A DNA stretch of 64,000 nucleotides from Thermoanaerobaculia bacterium (GCA_947259195.1 CAMYLC010000067.1:18070-82069), one strand, 5' to 3'. Shown: positions 48,176-64,000, counted from the first letter of the stretch. Notes: generated from the letters alone by a model not told the origin. A program made the numbers and translations.

Positions 48176-49566
48176 TGTTTCGGCGCTTCACCAACCTGGC
48201 GGCAGTTCACTTCATCGGCATTGGTGGGGCCGGTATGAGTGGCATCGCCGAGGTATTGCTGGACTACAACCTGGAAGTGAGCGGCTGTGATCAGTCCATG
48301 AGCGAGACGACAGAGCGACTTGCGAAACTCGGTGTGACTGTCTATCAGGGACATTCTGCCGCGCATGTCGAGACGGCCGATCTGGTCGTGATCTCCTCGG
48401 CGGTATCGAGAGACAACCCGGAAGTGGTAGCCGCCCACCAGAACAATATTACCGTGGTGCGCAGAGCCGAGATGCTGGGCGAGCTCATGCGCTTGAAGTA
48501 TGGCGTCGCCGTGGCGGGAACCCATGGCAAGACGACGACGACCTCGTTGATCGGGACTGTGCTGACGGAAGCGGGACTGGATCCGACGGTCATCGTGGGC
48601 GGTCGCCTGAGGGTCTCGGGCACCGGCGCTCGGCTGGGTAAGAGCGAATACCTGGTCGCCGAGGCCGATGAGTACGACCGCAGCTTTCTCAGGCTGCAGC
48701 CCATCCTGGCGGTGGTCACTTCGATCGACGAGGACCACTTGGACACCTACGCGAATCTGGACGAGATCCGTAAAGCCTTCGTGACTTTTGCTGGCAAAGT
48801 GCCGTTCTTCGGCCAGGCCATTCTCTGCCTGGACGACACCAATATCCAGGAGCTCCTGCCTCAGTTGAAGCAAGAGCACCGGGTCGTGACCTATGGACTG
48901 TCGCCGCAAGCCGATCTGAGAGCGACGGAGTTCGAGAGCACGCCCGCTGGATCTCGGTTCCAGGTCGTCGATTCACGTCAGGGCGAAATGGGGACGATCG
49001 AGCTGCCGATGCCGGGCCTGCATAATGTGCGCAACTCCCTGGCCGCGATAGCCGTGGGACAGGCGATGGGCGTTCCCTTCGTCAGCATCGCTCGGGCACT
49101 GGCGGGTTTCTCGGGTGTACATCGAAGGTTCGAGACCCGCGGTGTGTGGCGGGGCGCCAAAGTCATCGACGACTACGCCCATCATCCGACCGAGGTGACG
49201 GCAACTCTCGAAGCCGCTCGACAGGCCTTCCCGGGAGCCGTGATTCACGCCATCTTTCAACCGCATCTTTTCTCGCGGACTCGCCATCTGGCTCTCGAGT
49301 TCGGGCGTTCGCTGTTGGGGGCCGACAAGGCCGTGGTGACGGACATCTACCCGTCGCGGGAGCAGCCTGAGCCGGGAGTGACCTCCGATCTCGTGGTCGA
49401 GGCTGCCAGGCAAAGCGGTCACCGCGATGTCCGTTCCTGTGCCGACTGGCGGGAGGTCCCTCCAATGCTGGCGGCAGATGTCCAAGAAGGGGATGTGATC
49501 TTGACCCTCGGAGCCGGCGATATCTACCGCTTGGCGGAGCTGCTCGTTGCGGAGGGTGCGAGATGA
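48175..49566 (+). CDS. murC: UDP-N-acetylmuramate--L-alanine ligase
   Basis: The ATG at 48175 overlaps the murG stop. VHFIGIGGAGMSGIAEVL, VAVAGTHGKTTTTSLI, DDYAHHPTEV. Confidence 0.9.
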   Translation: MFRRFTNLAAVHFIGIGGAGMSGIAEVLLDYNLEVSGCDQSMSETTERLAKLGVTVYQGHSAAHVETADLVVISSAVSRDNPEVVAAHQNNITVVRRAEMLGELMRLKYGVAVAGTHGKTTTTSLIGTVLTEAGLDPTVIVGGRLRVSGTGARLGKSEYLVAEADEYDRSFLRLQPILAVVTSIDEDHLDTYANLDEIRKAFVTFAGKVPFFGQAILCLDDTNIQELLPQLKQEHRVVTYGLSPQADLRATEFESTPAGSRFQVVDSRQGEMGTIELPMPGLHNVRNSLAAIAVGQAMGVPFVSIARALAGFSGVHRRFETRGVWRGAKVIDDYAHHPTEVTATLEAARQAFPGAVIHAIFQPHLFSRTRHLALEFGRSLLGADKAVVTDIYPSREQPEPGVTSDLVVEAARQSGHRDVRSCADWREVPPMLAADVQEGDVILTLGAGDIYRLAELLVAEGAR

Positions 49567-50369
49567 AACCGCTAGATCTCCAGGTGTCGAGCCCGAGCCC
49601 GTTTCGGCGACGGCGATTCGTCGCGCCGCATCGGCGTCGCAGCCAAGTGCTGATGTTGGCACGACCCTTTCTGACTGCGCTACTGCTCGTCGGTCTGCCG
49701 GTAGCTGGAGGAGCCTGGGTCCTCACATCGCCCCGCTTCCTGCTCGACAACATCGTGATCAGTGGCACGAGTCGAGTTCGACCTTCCGAGGTCGCCGAGG
49801 CCCTGCGATCGCTGCGGGGAAAGCACCTTCTATTGGTCTCGCTTGCTGACGTGGAGAGTCGACTCTCCCAGAACCGATGGATCGAAGGGGCCAACCTGCG
49901 CAAGAAGATGCCCAACAGCCTCGTAGTAGAGGTCAAGGAGAGGCAACCGGTCATCCTGTTGAGGCGTGACGAAGGTCTTTTCTATGTCGATCGGAGTGGC
50001 ACCGTGATCGATCTCTATGATCCGGCGCGAGAGGCGGACCTGCTTTTGCTGAGTGTTGCCCCGGGTGTCGAATTGGAGGTTTGGCCAGCGCTCGCCATCG
50101 CAGCAGAGCTGGAACTGGTGGCGCCGGACTGGGCGTCGGGCCTGTCGGAGGTCGAGGTTTTGGGAGGAGATGATTTTCGACTCTTTACGGCGGCCCTGCC
50201 GTTTCCGGTACTGGTAAGTCTCGGCGGAGTCGGAAGACAGGTCAGGAAGTTCAGGCTAGTGATGCCCGAAATCGCCCGTCGGTACGACCGGGTCTCCGCG
50301 GTCGACCTTCGTTTCTCACGTCAAATCGTTGTTCAACCCGCGGTGGACCCGCGTAGTCAGGAGGGGTGA
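49563..50369 (+). CDS. ftsQ: Cell division protein FtsQ (POTRA domain)
   Basis: 268-aa bitopic ORF with a basic N-terminus, one TM and a POTRA-like segment (IVISGTSRVRPSEVAEAL...NLRKKMPNSLVVEVKERQP). Positioned between murC and ftsA. Confidence 0.75.
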   Translation: MKPLDLQVSSPSPFRRRRFVAPHRRRSQVLMLARPFLTALLLVGLPVAGGAWVLTSPRFLLDNIVISGTSRVRPSEVAEALRSLRGKHLLLVSLADVESRLSQNRWIEGANLRKKMPNSLVVEVKERQPVILLRRDEGLFYVDRSGTVIDLYDPAREADLLLLSVAPGVELEVWPALAIAAELELVAPDWASGLSEVEVLGGDDFRLFTAALPFPVLVSLGGVGRQVRKFRLVMPEIARRYDRVSAVDLRFSRQIVVQPAVDPRSQEG

Positions 50370-51616
50370 GGCTTATGCCCAAGGCGGACTCATACATCGT
50401 TGCCATCGACATCGGATCTTCGAAGGTCGGAGTGTTGATCGGGCAACGGGACGAGCGACAAGCTCTCGAAGTAGTTGGCAAAGGCGTCGCCCTCAACCGA
50501 GGGTCCCGTAAAGGGAACATCGTCAATGTCGAGGCGACGGTCGATGCTCTCAAGCAGGCCACCGAAGAGGCAGAGGTCATGGCCGGCATCGAGGTGTCGA
50601 GGGCCTTTGTCGGCGTGGCCGGAACCGATATCCGCAGTATCAACTCCCGCGGCATGGTCTCGGTGGCCAAGAAGGACCAGGACCGGGAGATCACGCGACA
50701 GGACATCAGTCGCGTCCTCGAGGCAGCGCAGTCTGCGGCGCTGCCCTCGGATCGCGAGATCCTCCACGCCATCCCGCAGGACTTCATCGTCGACGAGCAG
50801 GGTGGAATCTCCGATCCCATGGGGATGCTGGGAAGTCGCCTCGAGGTCGCAGTGCATCTGGTGACCGGCAACATCACTCGCCGCAAGACGCTGCTGACCT
50901 GCATCAATCGGGCTGGCATCGAAGTCATCGAGCTGGTATTCGAGCCCCTCGCCACGGCCGAGGCGGTCCTCACCCACGATGAGCGGGAGCTCGGGGCCCT
51001 GCTGCTCGATATCGGCAGCGGGACTACCGAGTACGCGGTCTTTGGTGATGGAGAGGTGCAGCACAGTGCGGTCCTGCCGGTAGGTGCCGGGCACTTCACC
51101 AACGACCTCGCCATGGTTCTGCGCACCCCTTTTGCGGAGGCCGAACAGATCAAAGTCAAGCACGGTTGCTGTCTCGGCGGCATGGTCGGCGAAGAAGAAG
51201 GCATATCGGTGCCGACGGTAGCGGGCGGGCCGCCGAGGGTCGTTCCCAAGCGGGAGCTCTGCGGCATCCTGCAGCCGCGGGCCGAGGAGATGTTGACTCT
51301 GGTGAGAGAGGACCTCTCCAAGTACGGCTTGGACGAGACTCTGCGCGGTGGTCTGGTGCTGACAGGAGGCGGCGCGCAGCTCGACGGCTACCTCGAATTG
51401 GCCGAGCAGGTATTCAACTGCACGGTCCGCTACGGCCTGCCTCAGCACCTGGCCGGCCTGGTGGACGTGATCAGCTCCCCGACCTGGACAGCGGCCTCGG
51501 GCCTGCTGCTCTACGGTCGAGGCGCGGAAGACCGACAACGTAGGACTATAAACACAGGTTTCAGCGTGCGTGGAGTGGTGACCAGTCTCCGCGGCATGTT
51601 CTCGGATTTACTGTAG
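50366..51616 (+). CDS. ftsA: Cell division protein FtsA
   Basis: 416-aa ORF; the start is either GTG 50366 or ATG 50375. Actin-fold motifs [44 protein letters not shown]-terminal amphipathic tail is present. Confidence 0.9.
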
Positions 51617-51648
51617 GAAGTAGAACCACCCGGAAGGAGAACAAGACA

Positions 51649-52896
51649 ATGATTCTATTTGACGATCACGAGATGGTAGGCAGTCTCCCCATCACCTTGG
51701 AAGAGGCGGAAGGCACGGCGGCCAAGATTACCGTCGTCGGCGTCGGTGGCGGTGGGGGAAACGCGGTGAACCGGATGATCGACTGCCAGATGCGAGGCAT
51801 CGAGTTTATCGCCGGCAATACCGACATGCAGGCGCTGCGGAAGTGTAGCGCGCCTGTGAAGCTCCAATTGGGCCCAACCCTGACCAGGGGTTTGGGCGCC
51901 GGCGGCGATCCGGAGGTAGGTCGCAAGGCGGCCCTCGAGGACACTGAGCGAATTCTGGAGCTTCTGGACGGTTCCGACATGGTGTTTCTCACGGCTGGAA
52001 TGGGTGGCGGGACCGGTACCGGAGCCATCCCGATCGTCGCGTCTCTGGCCGCTGAGCTGGGAGCTCTGACGGTAGCTGTCGTGACCAAACCCTTCACCTT
52101 CGAAGGCCGTCGACGCATGGAGATGGCGGAACGTGGAATCGAAGAGCTGCGGGGTGCGGTCGACACCCTGATCACCATTCCCAACGAGAGATTGCTCAAC
52201 TTCGTGGAGCGTGGAACGCCGCTCAACGAGGCCTTCCGCATTGCCGACGATGTCCTTCGCCAGGCGGTGCAAGGTATCTCCGATCTGATTACCGTGCCTG
52301 GCGAGGTCAACGTGGACTTCGCCGACGTGAAGACCATCATGACCGGTATGGGCATGGCACTGATGGGCACCGGCGTGGCCAAGGGCGAGAGCCGGGCCAT
52401 CGAGGCCGCCCAGCGCGCCATCTCGTCGCCCCTGCTGGAGGAGACCTCAGTCGAGGGCGCGAAGGGGGTGCTCATCAATATCTCCGGTGGCTCCGATCTG
52501 ACTCTTCACGAGGTGGATGAGGCGGCCAAGGTCATCGCTGAGGCAGTGGATTCGGCGGCCAATATCATCTCCGGTCTCGTCATCGACGAGTCGATGGAGG
52601 AAGAGATGAAGGTCACCGTGATCGCCACTGGCTTCCAGGTAGCAAATGCACCCATCTATAGCCAACCGTTCCTGCCCGCGGCCGAGAGTGACGAACCGGT
52701 CTATCCGCCAGAGCCGGTCGGGCCCGAGATGCAGGCAGAGCCAGAGCCGGTAGCCGAGGAGAAGGAGGAGGACATTCCGTTCTATCGCAAGGTAATCGCG
52801 CAGACCCAGCAGGACGACCCCAATGGTTACGGGCCGAACTGGTCGAACGTCGACGACTTCGACATTCCGACGGTGCTGCGGAAACAGATGGACTAG
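51649..52896 (+). CDS. ftsZ: Cell division GTPase FtsZ
   Basis: 415-aa ORF. Tubulin signature [17 protein letters not shown], and the conserved C-terminal peptide [12 protein letters not shown]. Confidence 0.95.
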
Positions 52897-53709: not shown

Positions 53710-54237
53710 ATGGAACAAGGTTTCGACGAGGCAAAGGCCCAACGCAATTGGTTGGAGCGATTGGGAGAGAAGATTCCCGGTTTCCGAGGCTTCCAGGATC
53801 GGGAGCTTCGAAGAGATGTCGACAAGTTGCAGCGCGAGTATCTCTCAGGCCAGGTGACGAAGGCCAAATCCACCCTTCGCAAGATTGCCGAGCGCTATAC
53901 GGATGCCGGCAAGATTGGAGTCCTGCATCTGTTCGACCGGCTCGACAAGCGATTGGATGGTCTGGCCCGGGCCATTCAGTTCAGCGATTATGGTGCGTCG
54001 GGCTTCTTCGATGTGATCAAGGTCGATGAGGCGGCTCTCGAGGAGCTTTATCGGTTCGATCTCGCTCTATTGGAGGAACTGTCGGGACTGGCTGACGACG
54101 CCGCAGCCATCCCAGCGCCCGCCGCCGGCGACCCAACGGAGGCTCTGGAGGTAACTCTAGATCGCCTCCAGCGACTGGAAGACAGGTGGGCGTTGCGGGA
54201 GAGCGCCGTCAACAAAGTCGTGCAAACAACAGGCTGA
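53710..54237 (+). CDS. Hypothetical soluble all-helical protein (first gene of the 53.7-60.8 kb cluster)
   Basis: 175-aa ORF with GGAGGG upstream of the ATG. There is no TM or signal peptide, and it has charged heptad-like helices (RELRRDVDKLQREYL, LDRLQRLEDRWALRE). I recognise no family. Confidence 0.5.
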   Translation: MEQGFDEAKAQRNWLERLGEKIPGFRGFQDRELRRDVDKLQREYLSGQVTKAKSTLRKIAERYTDAGKIGVLHLFDRLDKRLDGLARAIQFSDYGASGFFDVIKVDEAALEELYRFDLALLEELSGLADDAAAIPAPAAGDPTEALEVTLDRLQRLEDRWALRESAVNKVVQTTG

Positions 54238-54265
54238 TAGAGCCCTTGAGTCCTTAGGAGGACCG

Positions 54266-55306
54266 GTGATGAAGGTCATTCAATATGTAGACAGTACAGG
54301 CCAGACGATGGTAGCCAGGGTTCCCCGGCAGGGCACCGAGGCAATCAAGCTGGGTAGCCAGTTGATTGTCGAAGAGAGCCAGGAAGCGGTTTTCTACCGC
54401 GATGGCAAGGCTCTCGACACTTTTCGACCCGGTCGCCACACGCTCGCCACACAGAACTTGCCTCTGCTGGCAGGCCTGCTGGGGGTACCCTTCGAGGGAA
54501 AGTCGCCCTTCCAGGCGGCGGTCGTCTTCGTCTCGACGAAGACCTTTCTGGATCTCAAGTGGGGCACCAAGGAGCCGGTCGTCTATCGGGACAATGAGCT
54601 GGCGATGGTGCGGCTACGGGCGTTCGGCAAATTCGCCGTTCGCATCACCAACTCGCAGGTCTTCGTCAACGGGGTCGTCGGCACCATGGGGGTGTACACG
54701 ACCGATGGCGTGGAGTCCTACTTCAAAGACGTCATCGTTGCTCGCCTGACCGATGTGCTGGGTGAGAATCTGCAGTCGATTTTCGATCTGCCGAAGGTCT
54801 ACGACGAGCTGGCGATGGCACTGAAGGCCCGCGTCGCTGACGACTTCTCGAAGTACGGCATCGAACTGGTGGATCTCTACCTCGGCGCCATTACACCGCC
54901 GACCGATGTCCAGAAGCTCATTGACGAACGTGCCGGAATGGCCGCCGTGGGCGACATGAACGCCTACCTGAAATTCAAGGCTGCTCAGGCCATGGGCGAT
55001 GCAGCTCAGCAGTCGGGTGGAGAAACGGGAAGTGGGGTCGGAGCCGGCCTCGGAGTTGGCATGGGGGCGGGGATGGGCATGATGCTGCCGCAGATGATGA
55101 AGGAGGCGATGACCGATTCCGGTGGCGGCCAGGCTGCACCAAGTGAGCCAGCGACGGAGGGCCAGTCTCAACCCACGGGAGACGCCGCGGCTCCCGCAGC
55201 AGCGGGGACCGCTGCAGCGGCAGCCGCCTTCTGCCATTCCTGCGGTGGCAAGCTACCTACAGGTTCCCGGTACTGCCCCAGCTGCGGTACCAAGGTCGCC
55301 GAGTGA
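54266..55306 (+). CDS. SPFH/Band-7 family protein of the YdjI ('virion core protein'-like, Band_7_1) type with C-terminal zinc ribbon
   Basis: 346-aa ORF with AGGAGGA upstream. LIVEESQEAVFYRDGKALDTFRPGRHTL, KWGTKEPVVYRDNELAMVRLRAFGKFAVRI and GIELVDLYLGAITPP match my recollection of B. subtilis YdjI-type SPFH proteins. It has a Gly/Ala-rich linker and a terminal CHSCGGKLPTGSRYCPSCG. Confidence 0.8.
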   Translation: MMKVIQYVDSTGQTMVARVPRQGTEAIKLGSQLIVEESQEAVFYRDGKALDTFRPGRHTLATQNLPLLAGLLGVPFEGKSPFQAAVVFVSTKTFLDLKWGTKEPVVYRDNELAMVRLRAFGKFAVRITNSQVFVNGVVGTMGVYTTDGVESYFKDVIVARLTDVLGENLQSIFDLPKVYDELAMALKARVADDFSKYGIELVDLYLGAITPPTDVQKLIDERAGMAAVGDMNAYLKFKAAQAMGDAAQQSGGETGSGVGAGLGVGMGAGMGMMLPQMMKEAMTDSGGGQAAPSEPATEGQSQPTGDAAAPAAAGTAAAAAAFCHSCGGKLPTGSRYCPSCGTKVAE

Positions 55307-55370
55307 CCGGCGGACTCTCGCGGCTTGAGATCTTGACCGACCAGGCTGGACCGATCCGAGACCGTGGTCT

Positions 55371-56135
55371 ATGGCGACGGAGTTGAAAGACAGGGGTTTC
55401 GTCTGCACACAGTGCGGTGGAGAAGGCGACCTGGAGTCGGGCCAGCGCTTCTTGACCTGCCGGTTTTGTGACGCGACACTGTTCGTCGATCGATCGGGCG
55501 TGGTCAGCCACTACCGTCTGCCCCGTCTGTTGGGAGCAGATGAAGCCGAGGCGGCCTTGCGGCGGTGGATGGCTGGCAACGACACGGTCAAGGACCTCGA
55601 CAGCAAGAGCGGAATCGAAGCTGTCGAGGCGATCTCGTTTCCAGTGTGGCTCTTTCGGGTTCAGGCTGCCGGTGGAGAAGAGGTCTTCATCGAGCCGGCC
55701 GCTCCCACGACAATCCCGCAGTTGGCCGACTTCAAGCTGCCGGCCGGCAAGCTCGAGCCCTATCAAGCTGAAGAAGAAGTTGTCGAAGCGACCCCGGAGA
55801 CGATCCCTTTGGAAACCGCTCGGGGTTGGCTGGAACAGCGCGAGCTGGGTCGAGCGACCGAGACGGCTTTGGTACAGCTACCGCTCTGGAGATGTCGCTA
55901 TAGCTTCGAGAACCAGTCCTACCTGGCTCTGGTTGATGCCTCCACCGGCGCGGTGATGGCGGCCGTCTTCCCGGAGAAGGCCGAGAGCCCCTACTTCCTG
56001 GTCGCAGCTCTCGGGATCCTCCTCTTCACGATCGAGGGGTTGGCGATCTCCAACCCGGCCGCGAAGTTCGTGACCTACCTGGTTACCGCGATACCCCTTC
56101 TTCTACTAGCCTACTGGGTGGCCCGCAAGATATGA
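55371..56135 (+). CDS. Zn-ribbon membrane protein, paralogue 1 (CxxC-x14-CxxC, two C-terminal TMs)
   Basis: 254-aa ORF. CTQCGGEGDLESGQRFLTCRFC, then FPVWLFRV and LPLWRCRYSFENQSYLALVDASTG. The C-terminus has two hydrophobic helices. Confidence 0.6.
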   Translation: MATELKDRGFVCTQCGGEGDLESGQRFLTCRFCDATLFVDRSGVVSHYRLPRLLGADEAEAALRRWMAGNDTVKDLDSKSGIEAVEAISFPVWLFRVQAAGGEEVFIEPAAPTTIPQLADFKLPAGKLEPYQAEEEVVEATPETIPLETARGWLEQRELGRATETALVQLPLWRCRYSFENQSYLALVDASTGAVMAAVFPEKAESPYFLVAALGILLFTIEGLAISNPAAKFVTYLVTAIPLLLLAYWVARKI

Positions 56136-57256
56136 CCGAAGCCGTAGATTCTCCGGACACCGCACAGGTGCCCGATCGGGAGACCGAGGCCACGTTCGCG
56201 GGACGGGTCGAGGGCCTGAGCTGTCCGAGCTGCGGCGGAGCCCTCGACGTGGTGACAGGTCTGCGGGTAGTCACCTGTCCCTATTGTGAGAAGTCGCTCC
56301 TCGCCACTCCGGAGGTGGGCGTACGACGCTGGGTAGTCAAGCCGAGGCTCGGTGTCGACAAAGCTCGTGAGCTCGCCAAGCGTTGGCTATCGCAAGGCTG
56401 GAGCAAGGACGCGCGATTGCGACGCGAGGCCGAGACGGGCGAAGCCATCCTCTGCTTCCTGCCGTTCTATCGAGTGGAGGCCGACTGCATCGGTTTCGCT
56501 CTCGGTACCGAAGAGCGCCGTCGGACGGAAGGCTCGGGAAGCCATCGACGGCAAGTGGTCGAGGAGGTCGATGTGGAGCGGTCATTGGCCAGGAGCTTCG
56601 ACCGTACCTATCCGGCCCTCAACGTGGCGGAGTGGGGAATCCAGAGAATCGACCTGATGGGAGACGAGATCGTACCCTACGACGGGGTAGTTCTCGAGGG
56701 ACACGGCATGGTCTTCCCACCGACGGGCTCCGAAGTAGCGGTCAAGAAAGCCGCCATCGAGCAATTCAAGCTGCAGTCGGATCCGGCCAGAGGTCTCAAG
56801 CGGGTGCGCTTCCGTCATCTCGAGACTCTGCGAGAGCGTCTCAGTGTCGTCTACTACCCGCTCTGGGTCGTGCGCTATCGCTTCAGGAACCGTTCTTATC
56901 AACTCCTCATGGACGCCGAGGATGGATCGCTGGCTTATGGCAAGTCTCCCGGCAACGACTTGTTCCGAGCCGTCATGCTCGTCGGGTCGCAGGCTGTGGC
57001 CTTGTTCTTGGGGACAACGGCTTTGCAGCTGCTGGGCGGTAGCCCCGCGGGTCTTCTCATCATCGGTGGCGCCGTGGTCCTGGCCTTGACCTGGGGCTGG
57101 CGGCGCTTTCGCCACGGTGGAGTGGTGATCGAGGGTACAGGAGTCGATCCGGAGTTGGATCTGGGGGAGGCCTGGAGCACCCTGACGGATCGTGACGCCC
57201 AGGAGCAGATCCTACGTGACCTCATGCAGGGGCGCCTGCCGGAGATCGGTCGATGA
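56132..57256 (+). CDS. Zn-ribbon membrane protein, paralogue 2 (CxxC-x14-CxxC, two TMs, cytosolic tail)
   Basis: 374-aa ORF with an ATGA overlap to the upstream gene. CPSCGGALDVVTGLRVVTCPYC, FLPFYRVEA and YPLWVVRYRFRNRSYQLLMDAEDG are clearly alignable to paralogue 1. It has two TMs near aa 280-330. Confidence 0.6.
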   Translation: MTEAVDSPDTAQVPDRETEATFAGRVEGLSCPSCGGALDVVTGLRVVTCPYCEKSLLATPEVGVRRWVVKPRLGVDKARELAKRWLSQGWSKDARLRREAETGEAILCFLPFYRVEADCIGFALGTEERRRTEGSGSHRRQVVEEVDVERSLARSFDRTYPALNVAEWGIQRIDLMGDEIVPYDGVVLEGHGMVFPPTGSEVAVKKAAIEQFKLQSDPARGLKRVRFRHLETLRERLSVVYYPLWVVRYRFRNRSYQLLMDAEDGSLAYGKSPGNDLFRAVMLVGSQAVALFLGTTALQLLGGSPAGLLIIGGAVVLALTWGWRRFRHGGVVIEGTGVDPELDLGEAWSTLTDRDAQEQILRDLMQGRLPEIGR

Positions 57257-57879
57257 CCGTCGGCATCGAGTTCGCTCTCATTCCGCTGGACTGCCCGACC
57301 TGTGGAGCGGGAATCGACGCTCAGGGAGAAGATGTCGTTTACTACTGCACGGCCTGCCGCAACGGCTATCTCCTAGATGAGTCGGACTGGTCTCTGCGAC
57401 TCATCGACGCCTCCTTCGTCGCAGCAGCCCACCTCCAGGCAGAGGAATACAAGCCGTTCTGGCTCCTGCCGGCCAAGGTCGACATCGTTGACCGTCAGGC
57501 GAGCGGTGGAGGTTTCTCCGGTATCCTGCGCACGTTTTTCGGCAAGGACCGGACCCTCGACGAAGCCGGCAAGGGGGTCTTCGCAGTGCCGGCATTTCAC
57601 GCATCGCTCGAGTCGGTGACCCGCCTGGTACGCAGCTATACCGAAGCGCTTCCCGAGCTGAAGGAGAAGCTGGGCGAGCGTCTGCTGGGAGGGTGCTATG
57701 GGCGGCAGGATGCCGAGAAACTGGCTCACTATGCCCTGATTGCCACGGAGGTGGAAAAGCCCGACAAGCTGCTGGAGCTGAAATACGAAATCGAATTTGG
57801 TGAGCCCCGCCTTCTCGGAGTTCCTTTTTACAAGAAGGGTGATACCACTTTGGACGCCATCTTCGACATCGAGGTTTGA
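57253..57879 (+). CDS. Zn-ribbon protein, paralogue 3 (CxxC-x14-CxxC, soluble)
   Basis: 208-aa ORF with a 4-nt overlap to the upstream gene. CPTCGAGIDAQGEDVVYYCTAC, then KPFWLLPAKV. No TM segment. Confidence 0.55.
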   Translation: MTVGIEFALIPLDCPTCGAGIDAQGEDVVYYCTACRNGYLLDESDWSLRLIDASFVAAAHLQAEEYKPFWLLPAKVDIVDRQASGGGFSGILRTFFGKDRTLDEAGKGVFAVPAFHASLESVTRLVRSYTEALPELKEKLGERLLGGCYGRQDAEKLAHYALIATEVEKPDKLLELKYEIEFGEPRLLGVPFYKKGDTTLDAIFDIEV

Positions 57880-57982
57880 TCTTCGAGCCCTTGGCTACAG
57901 AGGGGCTCCGAACCTCCAGGTCTCTTGTTCAACGTGAGCGACGCTCGAGGATACGGTACTCTGAGAAGGTCGGGCTAGCTTA

Positions 57983-58819
57983 GTGAAGGAAACGACAGGC
58001 ATGATTATCGATGGCGTCGAGCTCTTTCTGAGCACTCCGGTAGAACAGGTTCCGCCCTGGGTCGGACAGCGTGAGGTCCTGATGCAGTTGCTCGCCGCCT
58101 GGTCGCGGGTGGAATCCGCAGATTTCCCCCTGAACCCGCGCCTCCTGGGGAAACCCGGTGTGGGGAAGACCACCCTCGCTTGTGCTGCTGCTCGAGAGCT
58201 GGGTCTGGATATCTACATTGCCCAGGCCACCATGGATACGCGCCCCGAGGACCTCATCGTCTCGCCGGTCCTGGCGAAGGAAGGTGGGGTTCGATACATG
58301 GCTTCGCCCTTGGTCAGCGCCATGGTTCGGGGCGGAGCCATGATTCTCGACGAAGGGAACCGAATGAGCGAGAAGTCGTGGGCATCCCTGGCTCCCCTGC
58401 TCGATCACCGGCGCTACGTGGAAAGCCTGGTGGCCGGAGTTCGTATCCCGGCGCATGACGACTTCCGCTTCGTGACCACCATGAACGAGGATGCCTCGAC
58501 CTATGAGCTGCCCGGTTACATCCACTCCCGACTGATGCCACAGATCTACATCGACTTCCCCGAGGAGGACGAAGAACGGGAGATTCTGCGTGCCCAGGTG
58601 CCGTTCGCCGACACTGAGGTCGTGGAGTACGTCTTGTCGTTCCTCCGGGCGGCACACGATCGCGACCTACGCTATACGGTTCGCGACGGCATCAATCTCG
58701 TGCGCTATGCCATGAAGCTTCTCAAGCGGGGTGAAGCTGAGAACGCACCCGATGCGGTCGATGCGGCCCTGAGACTGTCCGTGGGCGACGAGCAGATGGA
58801 GGAGTTCGAAATCTCGTGA
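57983..58819 (+). CDS. MoxR/NorQ/CbbQ-like AAA+ ATPase (AAA_5 type)
   Basis: 278-aa ORF with a GTG start (alternative ATG at 58001). Walker A LLGKPGVGKTTLA, Walker B AMILDEGNR, sensor-like FRFVTTMN and a helical lid. The size matches NorQ/CbbQ-type MoxR ATPases. Confidence 0.8.
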   Translation: MKETTGMIIDGVELFLSTPVEQVPPWVGQREVLMQLLAAWSRVESADFPLNPRLLGKPGVGKTTLACAAARELGLDIYIAQATMDTRPEDLIVSPVLAKEGGVRYMASPLVSAMVRGGAMILDEGNRMSEKSWASLAPLLDHRRYVESLVAGVRIPAHDDFRFVTTMNEDASTYELPGYIHSRLMPQIYIDFPEEDEEREILRAQVPFADTEVVEYVLSFLRAAHDRDLRYTVRDGINLVRYAMKLLKRGEAENAPDAVDAALRLSVGDEQMEEFEIS

Positions 58820-60822
58820 GCCAGCCGAGCGGCGCTGGCGTCGATCTGGATCGACTGGCCCCCGAAGTGGGTGAGGGCATTCGCCTGCTGCCGGTGGTTC
58901 ACGAACGCGTCGAGTTGGCCAGCGTCGCCCGGGCGGTACTCGAGGCCGTAGATCCGGCGGCGGTGGCCGTCGAGCTGCCGACAACCCTGAGGGAAGCGGC
59001 GGTCAGGGCCGTCGGGCGGCTTCCCCGGATCTCGCTGGTGATCTCGGAAGAACCGGGGTACCAAGCCCTGGTGTGGGTCGTGGCACCCGGTGACCCCCTG
59101 GTCGAGGCCATCCGCTGGGCGCTCGATCGTGACAGAGCCCTTTTCTGCGTCGATCCAGATCTCCCATATGAGGAGAGGCACCTAGACCGCGTTCCCGACC
59201 CCTATGCCCTCTTTCAGATGGGCGCGAGCGACTATCTCGAGAGCCTGCAACTCGGTCTGGAAGAAGGGGGCAAGTCCGAGGCCGATGATCGTCGAGAGTC
59301 GGGGATGGCCTTCCATCTTCAGCAGGCTCGCGACGAGATCTCTGGCCCCATTGTGGCATTCGTCGGAGCGGCCCACGTAGAGGGTGTCCGCTCCCGGGTG
59401 GGGGCACCCCTGGCGCATCCCTTTGCTCGTACGCGGCGCAATCGGGTTCTGGTGCGACACTTGGCTCCCAACAGTCTCACAGCACTGCTTCCGGATGCGC
59501 CGTTGGCACACGCCGTCTGGGAGCGAGTTCGGGAGGGTGAGGTTCCGGCTGAGACGGATCTGGGATCGACTCTCTCGCGTCGCCAATCCGTGATGCGCTT
59601 CGGCCTGCGAGTGATCCAAGGAGAGCGGGGGAGCGACGACGCCAACCGCGGAGAGAAACTCGTGGACTATGCCAGCTGCCTGGGAACTCGAGAGGCCCTT
59701 GGCGGCCGGTTGGCTCCCGATCGGGCACGCCTTGGCGGGGTCGTCTGGCGCATCGCAGCCGGCTCGTACACTGAGCAGACCGGCGAGTCGGCGGCCGCTT
59801 GGCAACGGAGAATGTTCTTCGACTACTCTCGGCGCTGTGCCAGGGTGCAGGGCAATCTGATACCGGGACTCTATGAATGGGTGATCGCGGCGCGCGGCGT
59901 CGGCGATGACAATCTCGCCTGGGAGGTCTTCGACGCATCCCGGACGTATCCCTGGCAGAAGGACCACGCAGAGATCGAGACCGCTTCCGTCGATGGGGAC
60001 GAACTGGATCTCGGCACGCGCTCGATCCGTTTTCGGCGTCGATTCTTTCGCGTCAAGCAGCGGCCGATCGCCGTCCCTGTGCGGCAGCACCCGCAAGCCG
60101 AAAGTCCGGAGGACTGGCTGCGGGCGTTCGATTCGTCAGGCCTGTGCTCCTACCCGCCGGAGGACCTTGTTGTCGAGGATTACGGGTGCTTTCTACAGAA
60201 GAAGGCCCTCTCGGTGCTGTCAGCGGAGCGCAAAAGGACCGAGCCATTCACCAGCAGCTTGCTGGACGGGATCGACGTTCGGGAGACGCTTCGCAACGTC
60301 CATGAAGACCGGATCTATGTGGAAGAGAAGGGACAAGTGCCGGGTGATGCAGGATCGGTGGTGGTCGTCTTCGATCGAGACTTGGACAACGAGCGGTACC
60401 CCTTTGCCATGACCTGGTTGGGAGAGCACGATCAGGAATCGGATATGGCGTTCTATGCGACGAATCCGGCGGACCAGGTGGTGGGTCCCGGAATGATGCG
60501 GGCGACCTACGGCGGTTTCGTGTTGACGCAGCCGAGGGGCAGGCTGTTCGATGTCTGGTCGGATGATGACTATCGACTCGCTCGTGGCAAGGCGGAGGTT
60601 CTGCTGATGGCCGCCGTCGACTACAGCCTCGAGAAGATCGTGGTGCATCTGGCGGCGGAGGCTCCCGCTGAGAGATTGCGCCGCTATGCCGCTGCTCAGG
60701 GCAAGCAGATCCTCCACATCCCGCTCGCCTCTCTCTCTCCCCTGAGCCTGAAAAAGATCCGTGTCATGCATATTCTTGCCGGCCGCGACAAGCGTGCTAT
60801 CGCGAAAGACTACATTTGGTGA
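58816..60822 (+). CDS. Large uncharacterised protein, N-terminus TraB/GumN-like, overall reminiscent of DUF5682
   Basis: 668-aa ORF with a GTGA overlap to the AAA+ gene. LLPVVHERVELASVARAVLEAVDPAAVAVELP, PLVEAIRWALDRDRALFCVDPDLP and IVAFVGAAHVEG resemble TraB/DUF5682 N-terminal patterns from memory. No TM and no clear MIDAS (DxSxS) motif. Confidence 0.55.
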   Translation: MSQPSGAGVDLDRLAPEVGEGIRLLPVVHERVELASVARAVLEAVDPAAVAVELPTTLREAAVRAVGRLPRISLVISEEPGYQALVWVVAPGDPLVEAIRWALDRDRALFCVDPDLPYEERHLDRVPDPYALFQMGASDYLESLQLGLEEGGKSEADDRRESGMAFHLQQARDEISGPIVAFVGAAHVEGVRSRVGAPLAHPFARTRRNRVLVRHLAPNSLTALLPDAPLAHAVWERVREGEVPAETDLGSTLSRRQSVMRFGLRVIQGERGSDDANRGEKLVDYASCLGTREALGGRLAPDRARLGGVVWRIAAGSYTEQTGESAAAWQRRMFFDYSRRCARVQGNLIPGLYEWVIAARGVGDDNLAWEVFDASRTYPWQKDHAEIETASVDGDELDLGTRSIRFRRRFFRVKQRPIAVPVRQHPQAESPEDWLRAFDSSGLCSYPPEDLVVEDYGCFLQKKALSVLSAERKRTEPFTSSLLDGIDVRETLRNVHEDRIYVEEKGQVPGDAGSVVVVFDRDLDNERYPFAMTWLGEHDQESDMAFYATNPADQVVGPGMMRATYGGFVLTQPRGRLFDVWSDDDYRLARGKAEVLLMAAVDYSLEKIVVHLAAEAPAERLRRYAAAQGKQILHIPLASLSPLSLKKIRVMHILAGRDKRAIAKDYIW

Positions 60823-60827
60823 TTGCA

Positions 60828-61177
60828 CGCCTGGGGCCTGGGTCCTGGGCAGATGACCCTCTTCTCGTAGAGGCCCGTCCGGGTGGTCCGCAGGCGGACG
60901 GCGACGGCTACTCAGACTACGACGGGCGGGCCGTCCCCTCGTCTCGTCATCGCGCCTCATCTGTTGTGCCCTTTGATGGCCCTGGCGCCGCGCTCGACTC
61001 GGCGCCCCCTGTCGAACCACCCGGACGGACCCCCCCAACCAAGGTCAACTGCGTAGGACCCAAGCCTCAGGACCTCAGTGCCTCAAGCCCTCAAAGGTCG
61101 GTCGGAGCAAGCGACGGACGATTCAACCCCCAAGCCTTCCAAGGCCGGCTGGAAGGTACGCCCGACCGCTTCAACCC
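60828..61177. repeat. Mosaic intergenic repeat cluster, locus 4 of 4 (convergent junction, 668-aa protein gene -> <- methyltransferase)
   Basis: CCTGGGGCCTGGGTCCTGGGCAGATGACC (60830-60858) and CCTCAAGCCCTCAAAGGTCGG...ATTCAACCCCCAAGCCTTCCAAGGCCGGCTGGAAGGTACGCCCGACCGCTTCAACCC (61081-61177). The latter parallels 29701-29789. Confidence 0.8.
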
Positions 61178-61932
61178 ATCTGGCCGTAGTACACCTGGGT
61201 GTCGTACTCGATGCTGACGTGATCGTCGATCTCGTGGGCCTCGAAAATCTCGCGTAGGGCCCGAAGCATGTCGGTGTGGCGGGGATGGTCCGGACCAGGG
61301 GTGTAGGAGGACGACAGGAGACGGGCCTTCAAGCCTTCGAAGCGGAAGCTCTGGTGGTTGTCGAAGGTGGCGGTGCCGATCGGCGCGCTGCCGTAGAAGG
61401 ACTGGATCTCCTTGGGCCCGATCCGAGTATGGTCAACCTCCTGGTAGTCCGTACCGTAGGCGAGCAGTAGTTCTTCGTAGGCTTGCAGAAATGGGCTGCT
61501 CTGCTTCCTGCGGTCGTTCCAGAGCAGGACCACCCAGCCTCGCGGCCGCAGTATCCTGGCGAATTCGCGTCGCGCCGCCCTGGCCTCGAACCAGTGAAAA
61601 GCCTGGCCGGCCGCCACCAGATCGACACAAGCACCAGGCAGTCCGGTGTCCTCGGCACTTGCGGCGAGGCTGGTGAAGAGGCGGTAGGTCGCCAGCAACG
61701 CCTCACCTGCTCTTCTCATCTGGGCATTGGGCTCGACGCCGTAGACTCGACAGCCACTTTCCAGGAAGAGACGGCTCAGAAAGCCGGTGCCGGAACCGAT
61801 GTCTGCCACCGCCCAGCCGGGTGAGAGACCACATTCAGCCTCCAGGAGCTCGACCACCGCCTGCGGGTAGGAGGGCCGGGAGCGGACGTAGCTTTCCACA
61901 CGACGGCCGAATCGTTCCGTAGGTTTCTTCAT
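61171..61932 (-). CDS. Class I SAM-dependent methyltransferase
   Basis: The start at 61932 (MKKPTERFGRRVESY) avoids overlapping the PilZ gene. SAM motif I VADIGSGTGFLS and Methyltransf_11-like VDLVAAGQAFHWF. Confidence 0.8.
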   Translation of the reverse strand: MKKPTERFGRRVESYVRSRPSYPQAVVELLEAECGLSPGWAVADIGSGTGFLSRLFLESGCRVYGVEPNAQMRRAGEALLATYRLFTSLAASAEDTGLPGACVDLVAAGQAFHWFEARAARREFARILRPRGWVVLLWNDRRKQSSPFLQAYEELLLAYGTDYQEVDHTRIGPKEIQSFYGSAPIGTATFDNHQSFRFEGLKARLLSSSYTPGPDHPRHTDMLRALREIFEAHEIDDHVSIEYDTQVYYGQMG

Positions 61933-62011
61933 GGTACTCGCTGTGGATATGCCGCCAGTGACACCCCGCGAATCGTTGGTGTGCAGCGGCCGTCCTGCAC
62001 CTGGCTCGGCT

Positions 62012-62359
62012 CTACGGTTCCGGGCTGTCCAGCACGGCCTCAAGGGCCTCGATGTCTTCGGGTGTCAAGTCTAGAAACTGGAGCCCGACGTCGAAGGATG
62101 CCGGTGCGTCTGCCGGTAGCTCCTGGAGCCAGACTACTTCGGTGAGGAAGGTCAGTTTCGACTCGTCCGGGAGCCTGAGCTCGACCTCGAGTCTGTGCCC
62201 GGGTTCCATTGGGGCATCGCTGTAGACGCGAACACCCCCCAGGCCCACATCGACGAGAAGACCTCCCCGCCCGGCCGAAGGACCCACTGGTCGGCAGTAG
62301 ATCGGCGCCTGCAGCCGTGGATAGCGCCTTCTCTCCTCGCGATCCGTGTGATCAGTCAA
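62012..62359 (-). CDS. PilZ domain protein (putative c-di-GMP receptor)
   Basis: 115-aa ORF. RRxxxR-type motif (EERRRYPRL) and D/NxSxxG-like LLVDVGLGGVRV. Confidence 0.7.
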   Translation of the reverse strand: MTDHTDREERRRYPRLQAPIYCRPVGPSAGRGGLLVDVGLGGVRVYSDAPMEPGHRLEVELRLPDESKLTFLTEVVWLQELPADAPASFDVGLQFLDLTPEDIEALEAVLDSPEP

Positions 62360-62441: not shown

Positions 62442-64000
62442 CTACATCCGGTCCGGCAGGGGTAGCCCCAGGAGGTCGCTGAGCACGGTCAGGCCCTGGA
62501 CAAACACCTGCATCGTTGCCAGTCGGGCATGGCGTTGCCTTGAGTCCTGCTCCTGCAGGATGGGGTGACGATGGTAGATAGCGTGGAATTTCTGCGCCAG
62601 CTCCAATGCGTGCCGGGCCAGGAGGGAGAGCTCCAGGGAGTCCGCGGCTGCCTCTGCCTTTTGTGGGATCAGCGAGACGGCCAGGATCAGGTCCCAGAGG
62701 TCGTCATCCCAGACTTCTGTTGGAAGAGCGGTTGCCTCTGCTGGTGAGACCTCGGTAGGGAGGCCGACCTCTCCGAGCCGGCGGCTTATATTGAGCGCTC
62801 TGACAGCTGAATACTGCAGGTAGGGTCCGGAGTCACCCTCGAAGCTCAAGGCCTCGTCGAGGTCGAAGGCGATGATCCGATTCGTCGTCGCCTTGACCAT
62901 GAAGAAGCGAAGAGCCGCGATCGCAATCTGGCGTGCCAAGATGTCGAGGGCCTCGGAGCTCAGCTCGCGATTCCTGGCGCTGATCTCCTCACGACTCTTG
63001 GCTTCCAGCCGGTCGATCAGGTCGTCGGCCTTGACTCCGATTCCCTTGCGCCCAGACATCTCGAGGCTACCTGAGGCCTCCTCGGTGTCGTCTTCGAGGA
63101 ATCCGAACTGACGCGCTGTCGACGGCGAGAGGGTTACCATTTCATAGGCGAAGTGGATCGACCGCCTGGCCTGCTCGTGGTAGCCGAGCGCGTCGAGCCC
63201 GGCACGGACGATCTTCTGCAGGTAGCCCTGGCGGATGTCGATCACGTTGATCACGCGGTCTGCCTTGCCAAAGCTCGGGTGCTCGGGCACGCCGTCTACA
63301 GTGGTCTCCCAGACGTCCTCCGCCCGCCAGAAGCGATACTGGAAGTCCTTGTCGAGAAGGCCGAACTTCCACAGCTGGTAGGCGATGTCCTTGCCGACAT
63401 AGGTCACGGTACCGTCGGAGCGCACGATCACCTTGTCGGGATCCTCGAGGCCGGCAAACTCCTCGCTTTCCGACAGTGGCATGACCCAGCAACCTACGTT
63501 CTTGCCGGCGTCTTCAAAACGGACGGCATCTGTGGATTTGAGTTGCTCGAAGGCGTCGGAAAAGAAGTCGAGGCCCAGCACCGCTCCCTCGTGGGTCAGT
63601 AGATCGTAGGCGATGTCCAGTCGTCGCATCGTCGCCAGATGACGGCTGACGACGCGGCGTGAAACGAGCCGTGCCATCTCGGCACGAGGTCCGCTGCCGT
63701 GCTCGAGCTCCTGCAGGGTCAGGCGGCGGAGCTCCTGGTTCTCAGGGTCTTCCCCGTACCACCTACCGACTTCGCTGTAGAGATCCCAGCAGTAGTAGTC
63801 GAAGGGCTCGGGTAGGGCGGCGACCTCCTCGAGAGTCATCTGCCGCAGGTCCATGAAGCCGACGACGACGTCGGCCAGCTGCACACCCGTGTCGTCGATG
63901 TAGTTCTCTACCTCGACGGTATGTCCCAGGGCACGTAGGACCTTGCTCAACACATCCCCGAGGACCGCATTGCGAAGATGACCGATGTGCGCTGCCTTGT
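62442..64000 (-). CDS. argS: Arginine--tRNA ligase (N-terminus beyond window end)
   Basis: The frame is open to the window end. The reverse complement of the last bases encodes KAAHIGHLRN (class I HIGH motif). It also has an MSGRKG motif and a C-terminal DALR anticodon-binding helical domain. Confidence 0.9.
   Translation of the reverse strand, partial: KAAHIGHLRNAVLGDVLSKVLRALGHTVEVENYIDDTGVQLADVVVGFMDLRQMTLEEVAALPEPFDYYCWDLYSEVGRWYGEDPENQELRRLTLQELEHGSGPRAEMARLVSRRVVSRHLATMRRLDIAYDLLTHEGAVLGLDFFSDAFEQLKSTDAVRFEDAGKNVGCWVMPLSESEEFAGLEDPDKVIVRSDGTVTYVGKDIAYQLWKFGLLDKDFQYRFWRAEDVWETTVDGVPEHPSFGKADRVINVIDIRQGYLQKIVRAGLDALGYHEQARRSIHFAYEMVTLSPSTARQFGFLEDDTEEASGSLEMSGRKGIGVKADDLIDRLEAKSREEISARNRELSSEALDILARQIAIAALRFFMVKATTNRIIAFDLDEALSFEGDSGPYLQYSAVRALNISRRLGEVGLPTEVSPAEATALPTEVWDDDLWDLILAVSLIPQKAEAAADSLELSLLARHALELAQKFHAIYHRHPILQEQDSRQRHARLATMQVFVQGLTVLSDLLGLPLPDRM

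Follow-up and report, generated by a model that had tools for sequence, protein, structure and literature searches.

The 64,000-nucleotide (nt) stretch of Thermoanaerobaculia DNA analysed here (GCA_947259195.1, CAMYLC010000067.1:18070-82069; hereafter the window, with positions counted from its first letter) carries seven closely packed plus-strand genes at 53710-60822. We call them p1 to p7; an earlier note, made from the sequence alone, had proposed them as a single undescribed system. We found that these genes fall into two conserved sets with independent phyletic patterns, p1-p5 (module A, 53710-57879) and p6-p7 (module B, 57983-60822). The cluster is likely to represent two functionally independent units, a membrane assembly of SPFH and Zn-ribbon proteins and an ATPase-hydrolase pair, that lie side by side in one Thermoanaerobaculia lineage by synteny and not by function. 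The seven-gene combination itself is a product of synteny particular to this lineage, and the analysis brought out no evidence of a new mechanism.

Independent distribution of the two gene sets

Our listing of open reading frames (ORFs) returned exactly the seven plus-strand genes and spacings reported in the earlier note, with successive gaps from p1 to p7 of 28, 64, -4, -4, 103 and -4 nt, the negative values being 4-nt overlaps at p3/p4, p4/p5 and p6/p7. Tight same-strand packing and overlapping stop and start codons are not enough alone to define a system. Gene neighbourhoods were surveyed from two anchors. The p7-anchored survey used one genome per GTDB species and yielded at least 566 loci with a p7 relative, 80 of which were kept and searched with all seven proteins by tblastn; the p4-anchored survey covered 51 loci on metagenome contigs.

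In the p7-anchored survey, p6 immediately preceded p7 in 68 of the 80 loci, and in 7 of the other 12 the contig ended first. The pair was seen in Thermoanaerobaculia and, standing alone, in Myxococcota, Geobacteraceae (Geobacter, Geomonas, Pelotalea) and Desulfobacterales. Among the 49 loci with a full upstream flank (at least 9 kb), only 5 had p1-p5 within 10 kb of p7, and 44 carried p6-p7 without them. Seen from the other side, p6 and p7 were absent from at least 11 p4-anchored loci with 3.8-10 kb of sequence downstream of module A and from all distant loci, and followed module A in about 12 (L083-L099 and L119), all belonging to one clade. The earlier note had itself named neighbourhood conservation as a check on its proposal; by that check the seven genes are not co-conserved as one system and split into p1-p5 and p6-p7. 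They do belong to strongly conserved gene sets, but to two of them.

Both modules were present in six genome loci (L003, L004, L006, L008, L027 and L039). The distance between them, 0.1 kb in the window, comes to 0.4, 2, 3 and 4 kb in other loci and reaches 10.7 kb on a 232-kb contig, where the interval holds a histidine kinase, a dehydrogenase and other genes; the intervening genes are partly on the opposite strand. A gene for a fused E1 2-oxoacid dehydrogenase (E1_dh, Transket_pyr and Transketolase_C domains; 684-717 amino acids (aa)) was found between the modules or directly upstream of p6 in ten loci, including L001 (7046-9139), L006 (6772-8847) and L142 (8778-10931), and is missing between the modules in the window. 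Because this gene and variable intervening genes occur in relatives, the tight junction of the window looks like a secondary loss, which suggests that it was created by deletion of the genes in between.

The opposing explanation is that all seven genes form one co-transcribed system, in which the SPFH/Zn-ribbon complex would, in this lineage, be the target of p6 and p7, perhaps with one serving as remodeller and the other as protease. It draws on the shared strand, on the p5-p6 gap of just 103 nt without a recognisable terminator, and on the occurrence of module B downstream of module A in about 12 metagenome and six genome loci. (Promoter and terminator scans gave counts not above those of shuffled sequence and are uninformative in a 62% G+C genome.) However, the linked loci are not independent observations, because they all come from one clade, and within them the modules lie up to 10.7 kb apart with unrelated genes between. 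Moreover, the 44 loci with module B alone include other phyla, and module A stands alone in all deeper branches. On these distributions we regard a single seven-gene system as improbable. The short p5-p6 gap does weigh against full independence of the modules, as does the persistence of their same-strand adjacency across a subclade in which p7 identity ranges from 58 to 97%; the two may be co-transcribed and may have acquired a functional link specific to this lineage.

Module A: an SPFH protein and a Zn-ribbon triad

Within the 51 p4-anchored loci, p3, p4 and p5 were never separated or rearranged, even at identities as low as 36%, and p1 and p2 preceded them wherever there was enough contig. 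Among distant loci, L135, L139 and L140 had the full module, with SPFH gene and triad but without the AAA+ gene, as did L144, where the start of the contig truncates it; L137 and L141 had the triad alone, without p1 and the SPFH gene. Comparison by hhalign identified p3 orthologues in the distant loci at E 1e-44 and p5-family members after p4 at E 6e-10 to 3e-43, and placed the genes flanking the p4 relative in L137 and L141 in the p3 and p5 families. As the triad occurs without p1-p2, it therefore appears to be the core of the module, probably an ancient one, with the p1-p2 pair as a frequent addition.

The SPFH protein p2 (54266-55306, 346 aa) matched Band_7_1 (PF13421) with E 3.1e-58 and 197.3 bits against a cut-off of 24, residues 18-226 covering 208 of the 211 profile positions. 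It has no hydrophobic segment, and its SPFH domain is followed by a Gly/Ala/Met-rich linker at residues 240-320 and a C-terminal CxxC-x10-CxxC Zn-ribbon (Zn_Ribbon_1, residues 322-344). The same architecture has been described for YdjI of Bacillus subtilis, which ends in a zinc finger after a low-complexity linker and has no transmembrane segment (PMC8581546, PMC11237479), and it bears out the earlier description of p2 as a YdjI-type SPFH protein ending in a Zn-ribbon. No PDB entry matched p2 in sequence, and a plasmid search returned generic Band_7_1 proteins only, at about 35% identity.

In every module-A locus that has an SPFH gene and enough contig, that gene is directly preceded by p1, which opens the module (53710-54237). 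Its product is a helical protein of 175 aa without a transmembrane segment, for which the earlier note had recognised no family. The profile scan likewise gave no Pfam match, and a profile search of the p1 family against the PDB returned coiled-coil noise only and no related sequence. The NCBIfam model LIMLP_15305_fam was matched weakly, far below its threshold (5.7e-11; 42.6 bits against a cut-off of 210), with residues 30-159 aligned to model positions 34-165 of 175. This model describes a family of Leptospira hypothetical proteins of the same length as p1, and the one paper found to mention the LIMLP_15305 locus tag assigns it no function. From this sequence similarity, the p1 family, and perhaps the whole module, may reach the Spirochaetes. 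A total of 1,060 p1 homologues were found. We also considered p1 as a substitute for PspA/ESCRT-III proteins; homology was rejected (hhalign probability of 1.2% against E. coli PspA), and a functional analogy may still apply.

The triad comprises p3 (55371-56135, 254 aa), p4 (56132-57256, 374 aa) and p5 (57253-57879, 208 aa), each with a CxxC-x14-CxxC motif near its N-terminus (the CxxC pairs lying at residues 12 and 30 in p3 and at 14 and 32 in p5). Two C-terminal hydrophobic segments, forming a hairpin, are present only in p3 (209-227 and 233-251) and p4 (transmembrane segments at about 277-318), in line with the paired membrane segments that the earlier note had given to two of the three, and p5 is a soluble protein in which the Zn-ribbon is joined to an alpha/beta domain of about 165 aa. 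The note's description of the three as mutually alignable was correct in full for p3 and p4, paralogues that align over their whole length (BLASTP 3e-12; 252 columns at 2.3e-28 by hhalign), p3 being the shorter of the two with an alpha/beta domain between ribbon and hairpin. It did not extend to p5, which aligned with p3 and p4 only over the Zn-ribbon and a short stretch after it (35-41 columns; hhalign 3.6e-7 and 1.1e-8), and over at most 64 columns with a distant p3 orthologue.

An AlphaFold2 model of p4, the signature protein of module A, had a predicted local distance difference test score (pLDDT) of 79.6; from the Zn-ribbon it runs through a helix, a sheet whose strands are unusually long and two transmembrane helices to a helical tail. 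A whole-chain Foldseek search of this model against the PDB gave no match at E <= 0.001, and matches to beta-pore-forming toxins, with template modelling (TM) scores of 0.05-0.11, were rejected as artefacts of the long hairpins. Its sole significant structural matches were two giant-virus proteins in BFVD, both annotated as 'DnaJ-like subfamily C member 3', from Yasminevirus (A0A5K0UBJ7, E 1.1e-8) and Edafosvirus (A0A3G4ZSZ8, E 6.6e-7), with TM scores of 0.27-0.33; judging by the predicted model, the p4 fold may extend to the Klosneuvirinae or their hosts.

The family to which p3 and p4 belong is large. A profile search of 1.84 billion representative proteins retrieved 2,280 clusters (at 50% identity) with E <= 0.001, and 546 with E <= 1e-10. 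The p4 family, with members 320-380 aa long, has no Pfam and no NCBIfam model, and ten of its clusters that we sampled all bore 'hypothetical' or generic Zn-finger names. Pfam searches with 105 diverse p4-family members returned only Zn-ribbon families, together with sub-threshold PepSY/YPEB matches in 9 of them, and a plasmid search with p4 gave no match. The earlier view that most members of the cluster are uncharacterised was confirmed, as p1, p3, p4, p5 and p7 have no above-threshold sequence match in Pfam, NCBIfam or the PDB.

A point of comparison for this gene set is the pspA-ydjG-ydjH-ydjI operon of B. subtilis, part of the sigma-W regulon (PMC8581546, PMC11237479). There, the SPFH protein YdjI, itself anchorless, depends on YdjG and YdjH to reach the membrane, and PspA is brought there in turn by way of YdjI (PMC8581546). 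YdjG combines two Zn-ribbons, a YpeB-related NTF2-like domain and a transmembrane segment (PMC11237479). Module A resembles this operon in its soluble Band_7_1 protein, whose low-complexity linker leads to a C-terminal Zn-ribbon, in encoding that protein with membrane proteins that bear N-terminal Zn-ribbons and a beta-rich, possibly YpeB/PepSY-like, domain, and in its expected logic, by which membrane anchors would recruit an SPFH scaffold. The module is robust and widespread, has not been characterised before, and is probably a variation on SPFH anchoring of the YdjG/YdjI type.

By analogy with YdjG/YdjH/YdjI, p3 and p4 would sit in the inner membrane through their C-terminal two-helix hairpins, expose a cytoplasmic Zn-ribbon and a beta-rich domain that is probably PepSY/YpeB-like, and tether p2 to the membrane on its cytoplasmic side. 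The paralogue p5, with no membrane segment, and the helical p1 would be soluble subunits or adaptors, and the resulting complex might serve to arrange or shield parts of the membrane during envelope stress.

The likeness to the Bacillus operon is partial, and several differences weaken this proposal. None of the seven proteins matched PspA_IM30, and no TPM_phosphatase match (as expected for a YdjH-like protein) was found in them or in module-A loci elsewhere. Set against the published description of YdjG alone, p3 and p4 have one Zn-ribbon and two transmembrane helices versus two Zn-ribbons and one transmembrane segment. In addition, the PepSY signal that links the p4 family to YdjG and YpeB was sub-threshold in all 9 of the 105 members that showed it (best 0.004). 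The parallel drawn in the earlier note accordingly holds for the architecture of p2, is tentative for p3 and p4, and fails for PspA and the TPM protein.

A stricter alternative is that module A is a plain orthologue of ydjGHI, with p3/p4 corresponding to YdjG and p2 to YdjI, and contains nothing new. The YdjI architecture of p2 speaks for it, as does the likeness of p3 and p4 to YdjG in Zn-ribbon, beta-rich domain with its PepSY/YpeB signal, and transmembrane segments. So does length, since YdjG, which we take to have about 340 aa, would fall among the p4-family lengths. The differences run deeper than the missing PspA and TPM proteins and the unequal counts of Zn-ribbons and transmembrane helices, however: module A has three Zn-ribbon paralogues, two with hairpins and one soluble, versus a single YdjG; it includes the conserved p1, absent from the Bacillus operon; its SPFH gene comes first among these genes and not last; and its triad can exist without any SPFH gene. 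Furthermore, no sequence named YdjG appeared among the ten clusters sampled, and the N- and C-termini of YdjG, as inferred from published primers, were present in none of the 150 best family representatives. Plain orthology is, on balance, rather unlikely.

We tentatively propose, with somewhat less than even confidence, that the triad forms the core of a widespread and undescribed membrane complex, in which two hairpin-anchored subunits with a long-stranded beta domain and one soluble paralogue would make up an ancestral, PspA-independent docking platform for anchorless Band_7_1 scaffolds. SPFH proteins form large membrane cages, whose anchoring and role in bacteria are poorly understood, and to our knowledge work on Band_7_1 proteins that, like YdjI, lack an anchor has been confined to Bacillus. 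As a conserved five-gene set, module A would offer a second, more widespread model for attaching anchorless SPFH scaffolds to the membrane, and would indicate that the link to PspA is not obligatory; its three Zn-ribbon partners make up a large family without a database model.

SPFH scaffolds are encoded with a dedicated membrane partner in the SPFH-NfeD operons as well (such as QmcA-YbbJ and the archaeal stomatin-STOPP pairs). Module A likewise pairs an SPFH scaffold with membrane partner genes, but has no NfeD domain, and p2 lacks a membrane anchor of its own. A classical pair of NfeD and Band_7 (PF01145) genes lies immediately downstream of module A in L139 (9704-11302), so that two distinct SPFH systems are adjacent there.

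Module B: a MoxR-class ATPase and its TIKI-like partner

Module B opens with p6 (57983-58819), whose product of 278 aa is, as the earlier note had classified it, a MoxR-type AAA+ ATPase. It scored above the cut-offs of both AAA_5 (9.9e-16; 58.4 bits against 22) and AAA_3 (2.3e-7; 31.2 bits against 27), and across 67 orthologues its intact Walker A (G56-T63, GKPGVGKT) and Walker B (D123-E124) motifs and sensor residue N168 reach 97% conservation or more. Midasin AAA modules, CbbQ and NorQ came closest to it among PDB sequences, the last two matching it in size.

The partner p7 (58816-60822, 668 aa) begins with a TIKI/TraB/DUF5682-like domain (residues ~20-200) and continues through a helical middle part into an alpha/beta domain at the C-terminus, an arrangement also seen in its AlphaFold2 model (pLDDT 77), in which strands and helices alternate in residues 17-216. 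Active enzymes of the TIKI superfamily, which takes in Tiki, TraB/PrgY, RRSP, erythromycin esterases and ChaN, are defined by a catalytic set of two His and two Glu plus a conserved basic residue, Arg (PMC6254334). Across 75 orthologues spanning 40-97% identity, five p7 residues (H29, E53, R160, E161 and H187) show conservation of 97% or more, and they follow the order and approximate spacing of this set within the predicted alpha/beta domain.

Profile matches to known families were faint but consistent. Against the 727 positions of DUF5682 (PF18934), p7 reached 12 bits with a gathering score of 26 (E 0.065, over 45 residues), and among 69 p7 homologues we obtained weak Pfam matches to DUF5682 in 23 (best 3.4e-6), to TraB/PrgY/GumN in 3 and to ChaN in 1. 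By these profile scores p7 reads as a distant relative of DUF5682 and not as a member. The earlier label 'TraB/DUF5682-like' was overstated, since the signals behind it are weak and the window protein itself stays under the gathering score.

MoxR ATPases remodel or activate their partner proteins. The most likely role of p6, which is translationally coupled to p7, would accordingly be to remodel or activate p7 as a putative TIKI-type hydrolase or protease; we know of no description of TraB or Tiki proteins coupled to an AAA+ ATPase. Two results count against the hydrolase assignment. When p7 was aligned by hhalign with E. coli YehM (residues 28-198 against 9-211), VVHE was paired with IRHH, AVELP with LIEGP, RESGMA with REAFMA and GAAH with GGWH, which puts the five conserved residues opposite H, E, RE and H of YehM; the alignment had an E of 0.003 but a probability of only 10.7%. 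The whole-chain Foldseek search of the p7 model against the PDB gave nothing significant, the TIKI-superfamily protein ChaN (2g5g) appearing at rank 11 with E 1.0, and did not confirm a TIKI fold, whose core is a parallel beta-sheet with helices on its flanks. The likeness of p7 to the superfamily thus lies in its residue set and predicted domain, whereas its sequence matches are sub-threshold and its structural matches not significant.

YehM belongs to the E. coli yehL-yehM-yehP-yehQ genes (encoding MoxR AAA+, DUF5682, VWA and SWIM proteins), for which we know of no function; the literature on DUF5682 and yehL/yehM yielded nothing bearing on one. Like them, module B places a MoxR-class AAA+ gene directly upstream of a gene for a large protein whose N-terminal ~200 residues carry H...E...RE..M...G..H motifs. 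We rejected p6 and p7 as close relatives of yehL and yehM, as BLASTP found nothing beyond the P-loop, there being no detectable pairwise similarity otherwise, and the weak profile link concerns the N-terminal domain only. The proteins also differ in size (278 aa in p6 versus 362 aa in YehL), and module B has neither VWA nor SWIM partner genes. The MoxR-DUF5682 parallel suggested earlier therefore stands weakly, for the p6-p7 pair as such, and not for p7 as a DUF5682 protein. Module B is a robust two-gene pair of MoxR and TIKI-like proteins, distantly related to yehL/yehM.

In CbbQ-CbbO and NorQ-NorD, a MoxR AAA+ ATPase works with a VWA-domain adaptor to activate Rubisco or nitric oxide reductase. 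Module B is similarly a two-gene unit with a large partner, and p6 has the size of CbbQ and NorQ, its closest relatives among stand-alone solved structures. By Pfam, however, p7 has a TIKI-like domain in place of a VWA domain or its metal-ion-dependent adhesion site (MIDAS) motif, and no Rubisco or nitric oxide reductase genes lie nearby. The candidate of p7 as a CbbO/NorD-like adaptor was rejected, with no VWA match in p7 or its 69 homologues, and the 80 loci share no third conserved neighbour that could stand for the VWA partner of RavA-ViaA, CbbQO, NorQD and YehL-YehP.

No third partner gene for p6 and p7 emerged from all-against-all clustering of ORFs in the 80 loci, in which no further family occurred in more than 17. 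A gene for a protein of 551-552 aa without a Pfam domain lies convergently, directly downstream of p7, in L001 (12178-13833, minus strand) and L002 (12197-13855, minus strand); a related ORF cluster occurs in about 12 of the 80 loci and is absent from the window.

About 470 residues of p7 lie beyond the TIKI-like domain and have no assigned fold. The C-terminal half of the protein contains residues invariant in the 75 orthologues, D364-D365-N366, C444-S445...E449-D450...E454 and E537-H538-x-Q540-E541-S542-D543, in clusters encoded at about 59900-60600 of the window (residues ~360-545). Their conservation may point to another site for catalysis or metal binding, separate in nature from the TIKI-like domain. 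If our reading of module B is right, it offers a tractable MoxR ATPase with a non-VWA client. Relatives of p7 are encoded in 566 or more species-level genomes, and the cultured carriers of the pair include Geobacter hydrogenophilus, Geomonas edaphica and Pelotalea chapellei.

Chromosomal setting of the cluster

In the window, the cluster follows the end of a cell-division (dcw) gene cluster, with ftsQ (POTRA_1), ftsA and ftsZ (49563-52896, plus strand) directly upstream of a vanZ-like gene and module A. The vanZ-like gene named in the earlier note was recovered with a Pfam match right at threshold (30.2 bits against a cut-off of 30.1). This neighbourhood is not kept in other module-A loci, and the distant ones are set among ruvX, yceG, rlmN, xseAB, dxs and adk. 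Downstream of p7, on the minus strand, lie genes for a class I S-adenosylmethionine (SAM) methyltransferase (61171-62043) and a PilZ-domain protein (62012-62359), followed by argS.

These surroundings bear on a possible anti-phage function, raised in the earlier note, of the seven genes together or of either module alone. Some defence systems do contain SPFH, AAA+ and protease-like domains, and PADLOC (PADLOC-DB 2.0) gave weak matches of p6 to its IetA and TRIP13 models (E 1.6e-4 to 3e-3). Those matches cover the generic P-loop only, however, with nothing for the other six proteins, and PHROGs returned only generic ATPase and Zn-ribbon matches for the seven. The neighbours in the window and around distant module-A loci are housekeeping genes, with no sign of a defence island or of mobility around the modules, and position and gene order are stable by vertical inheritance, versus the patchiness typical of defence islands. 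We consider a defence role very unlikely.

Base composition is even over the region (G+C about 0.60-0.65), and the nearest genome match is a metagenome-assembled genome of Thermoanaerobaculia (Acidobacteriota), with a p7 97% identical to that of the window (L003). No terminator-like site was called by the terminator scan in the convergent junction after p7 (60829-61093). The earlier description of this junction as filled with repeats was overstated, as it holds just two tiny tandem repeats (a 7-nt GCCTGGG unit in 3 copies and an 8-nt unit in 3.6 copies, scores 30-35) and one imperfect 33-nt inverted repeat (60872-60904 and 60999-61031, 76% complementary). At the far end of the window, argS (62442-63953, minus strand) starts 47 nt from the window end and matched its profile only from position 138, so the gene probably runs on past the window.

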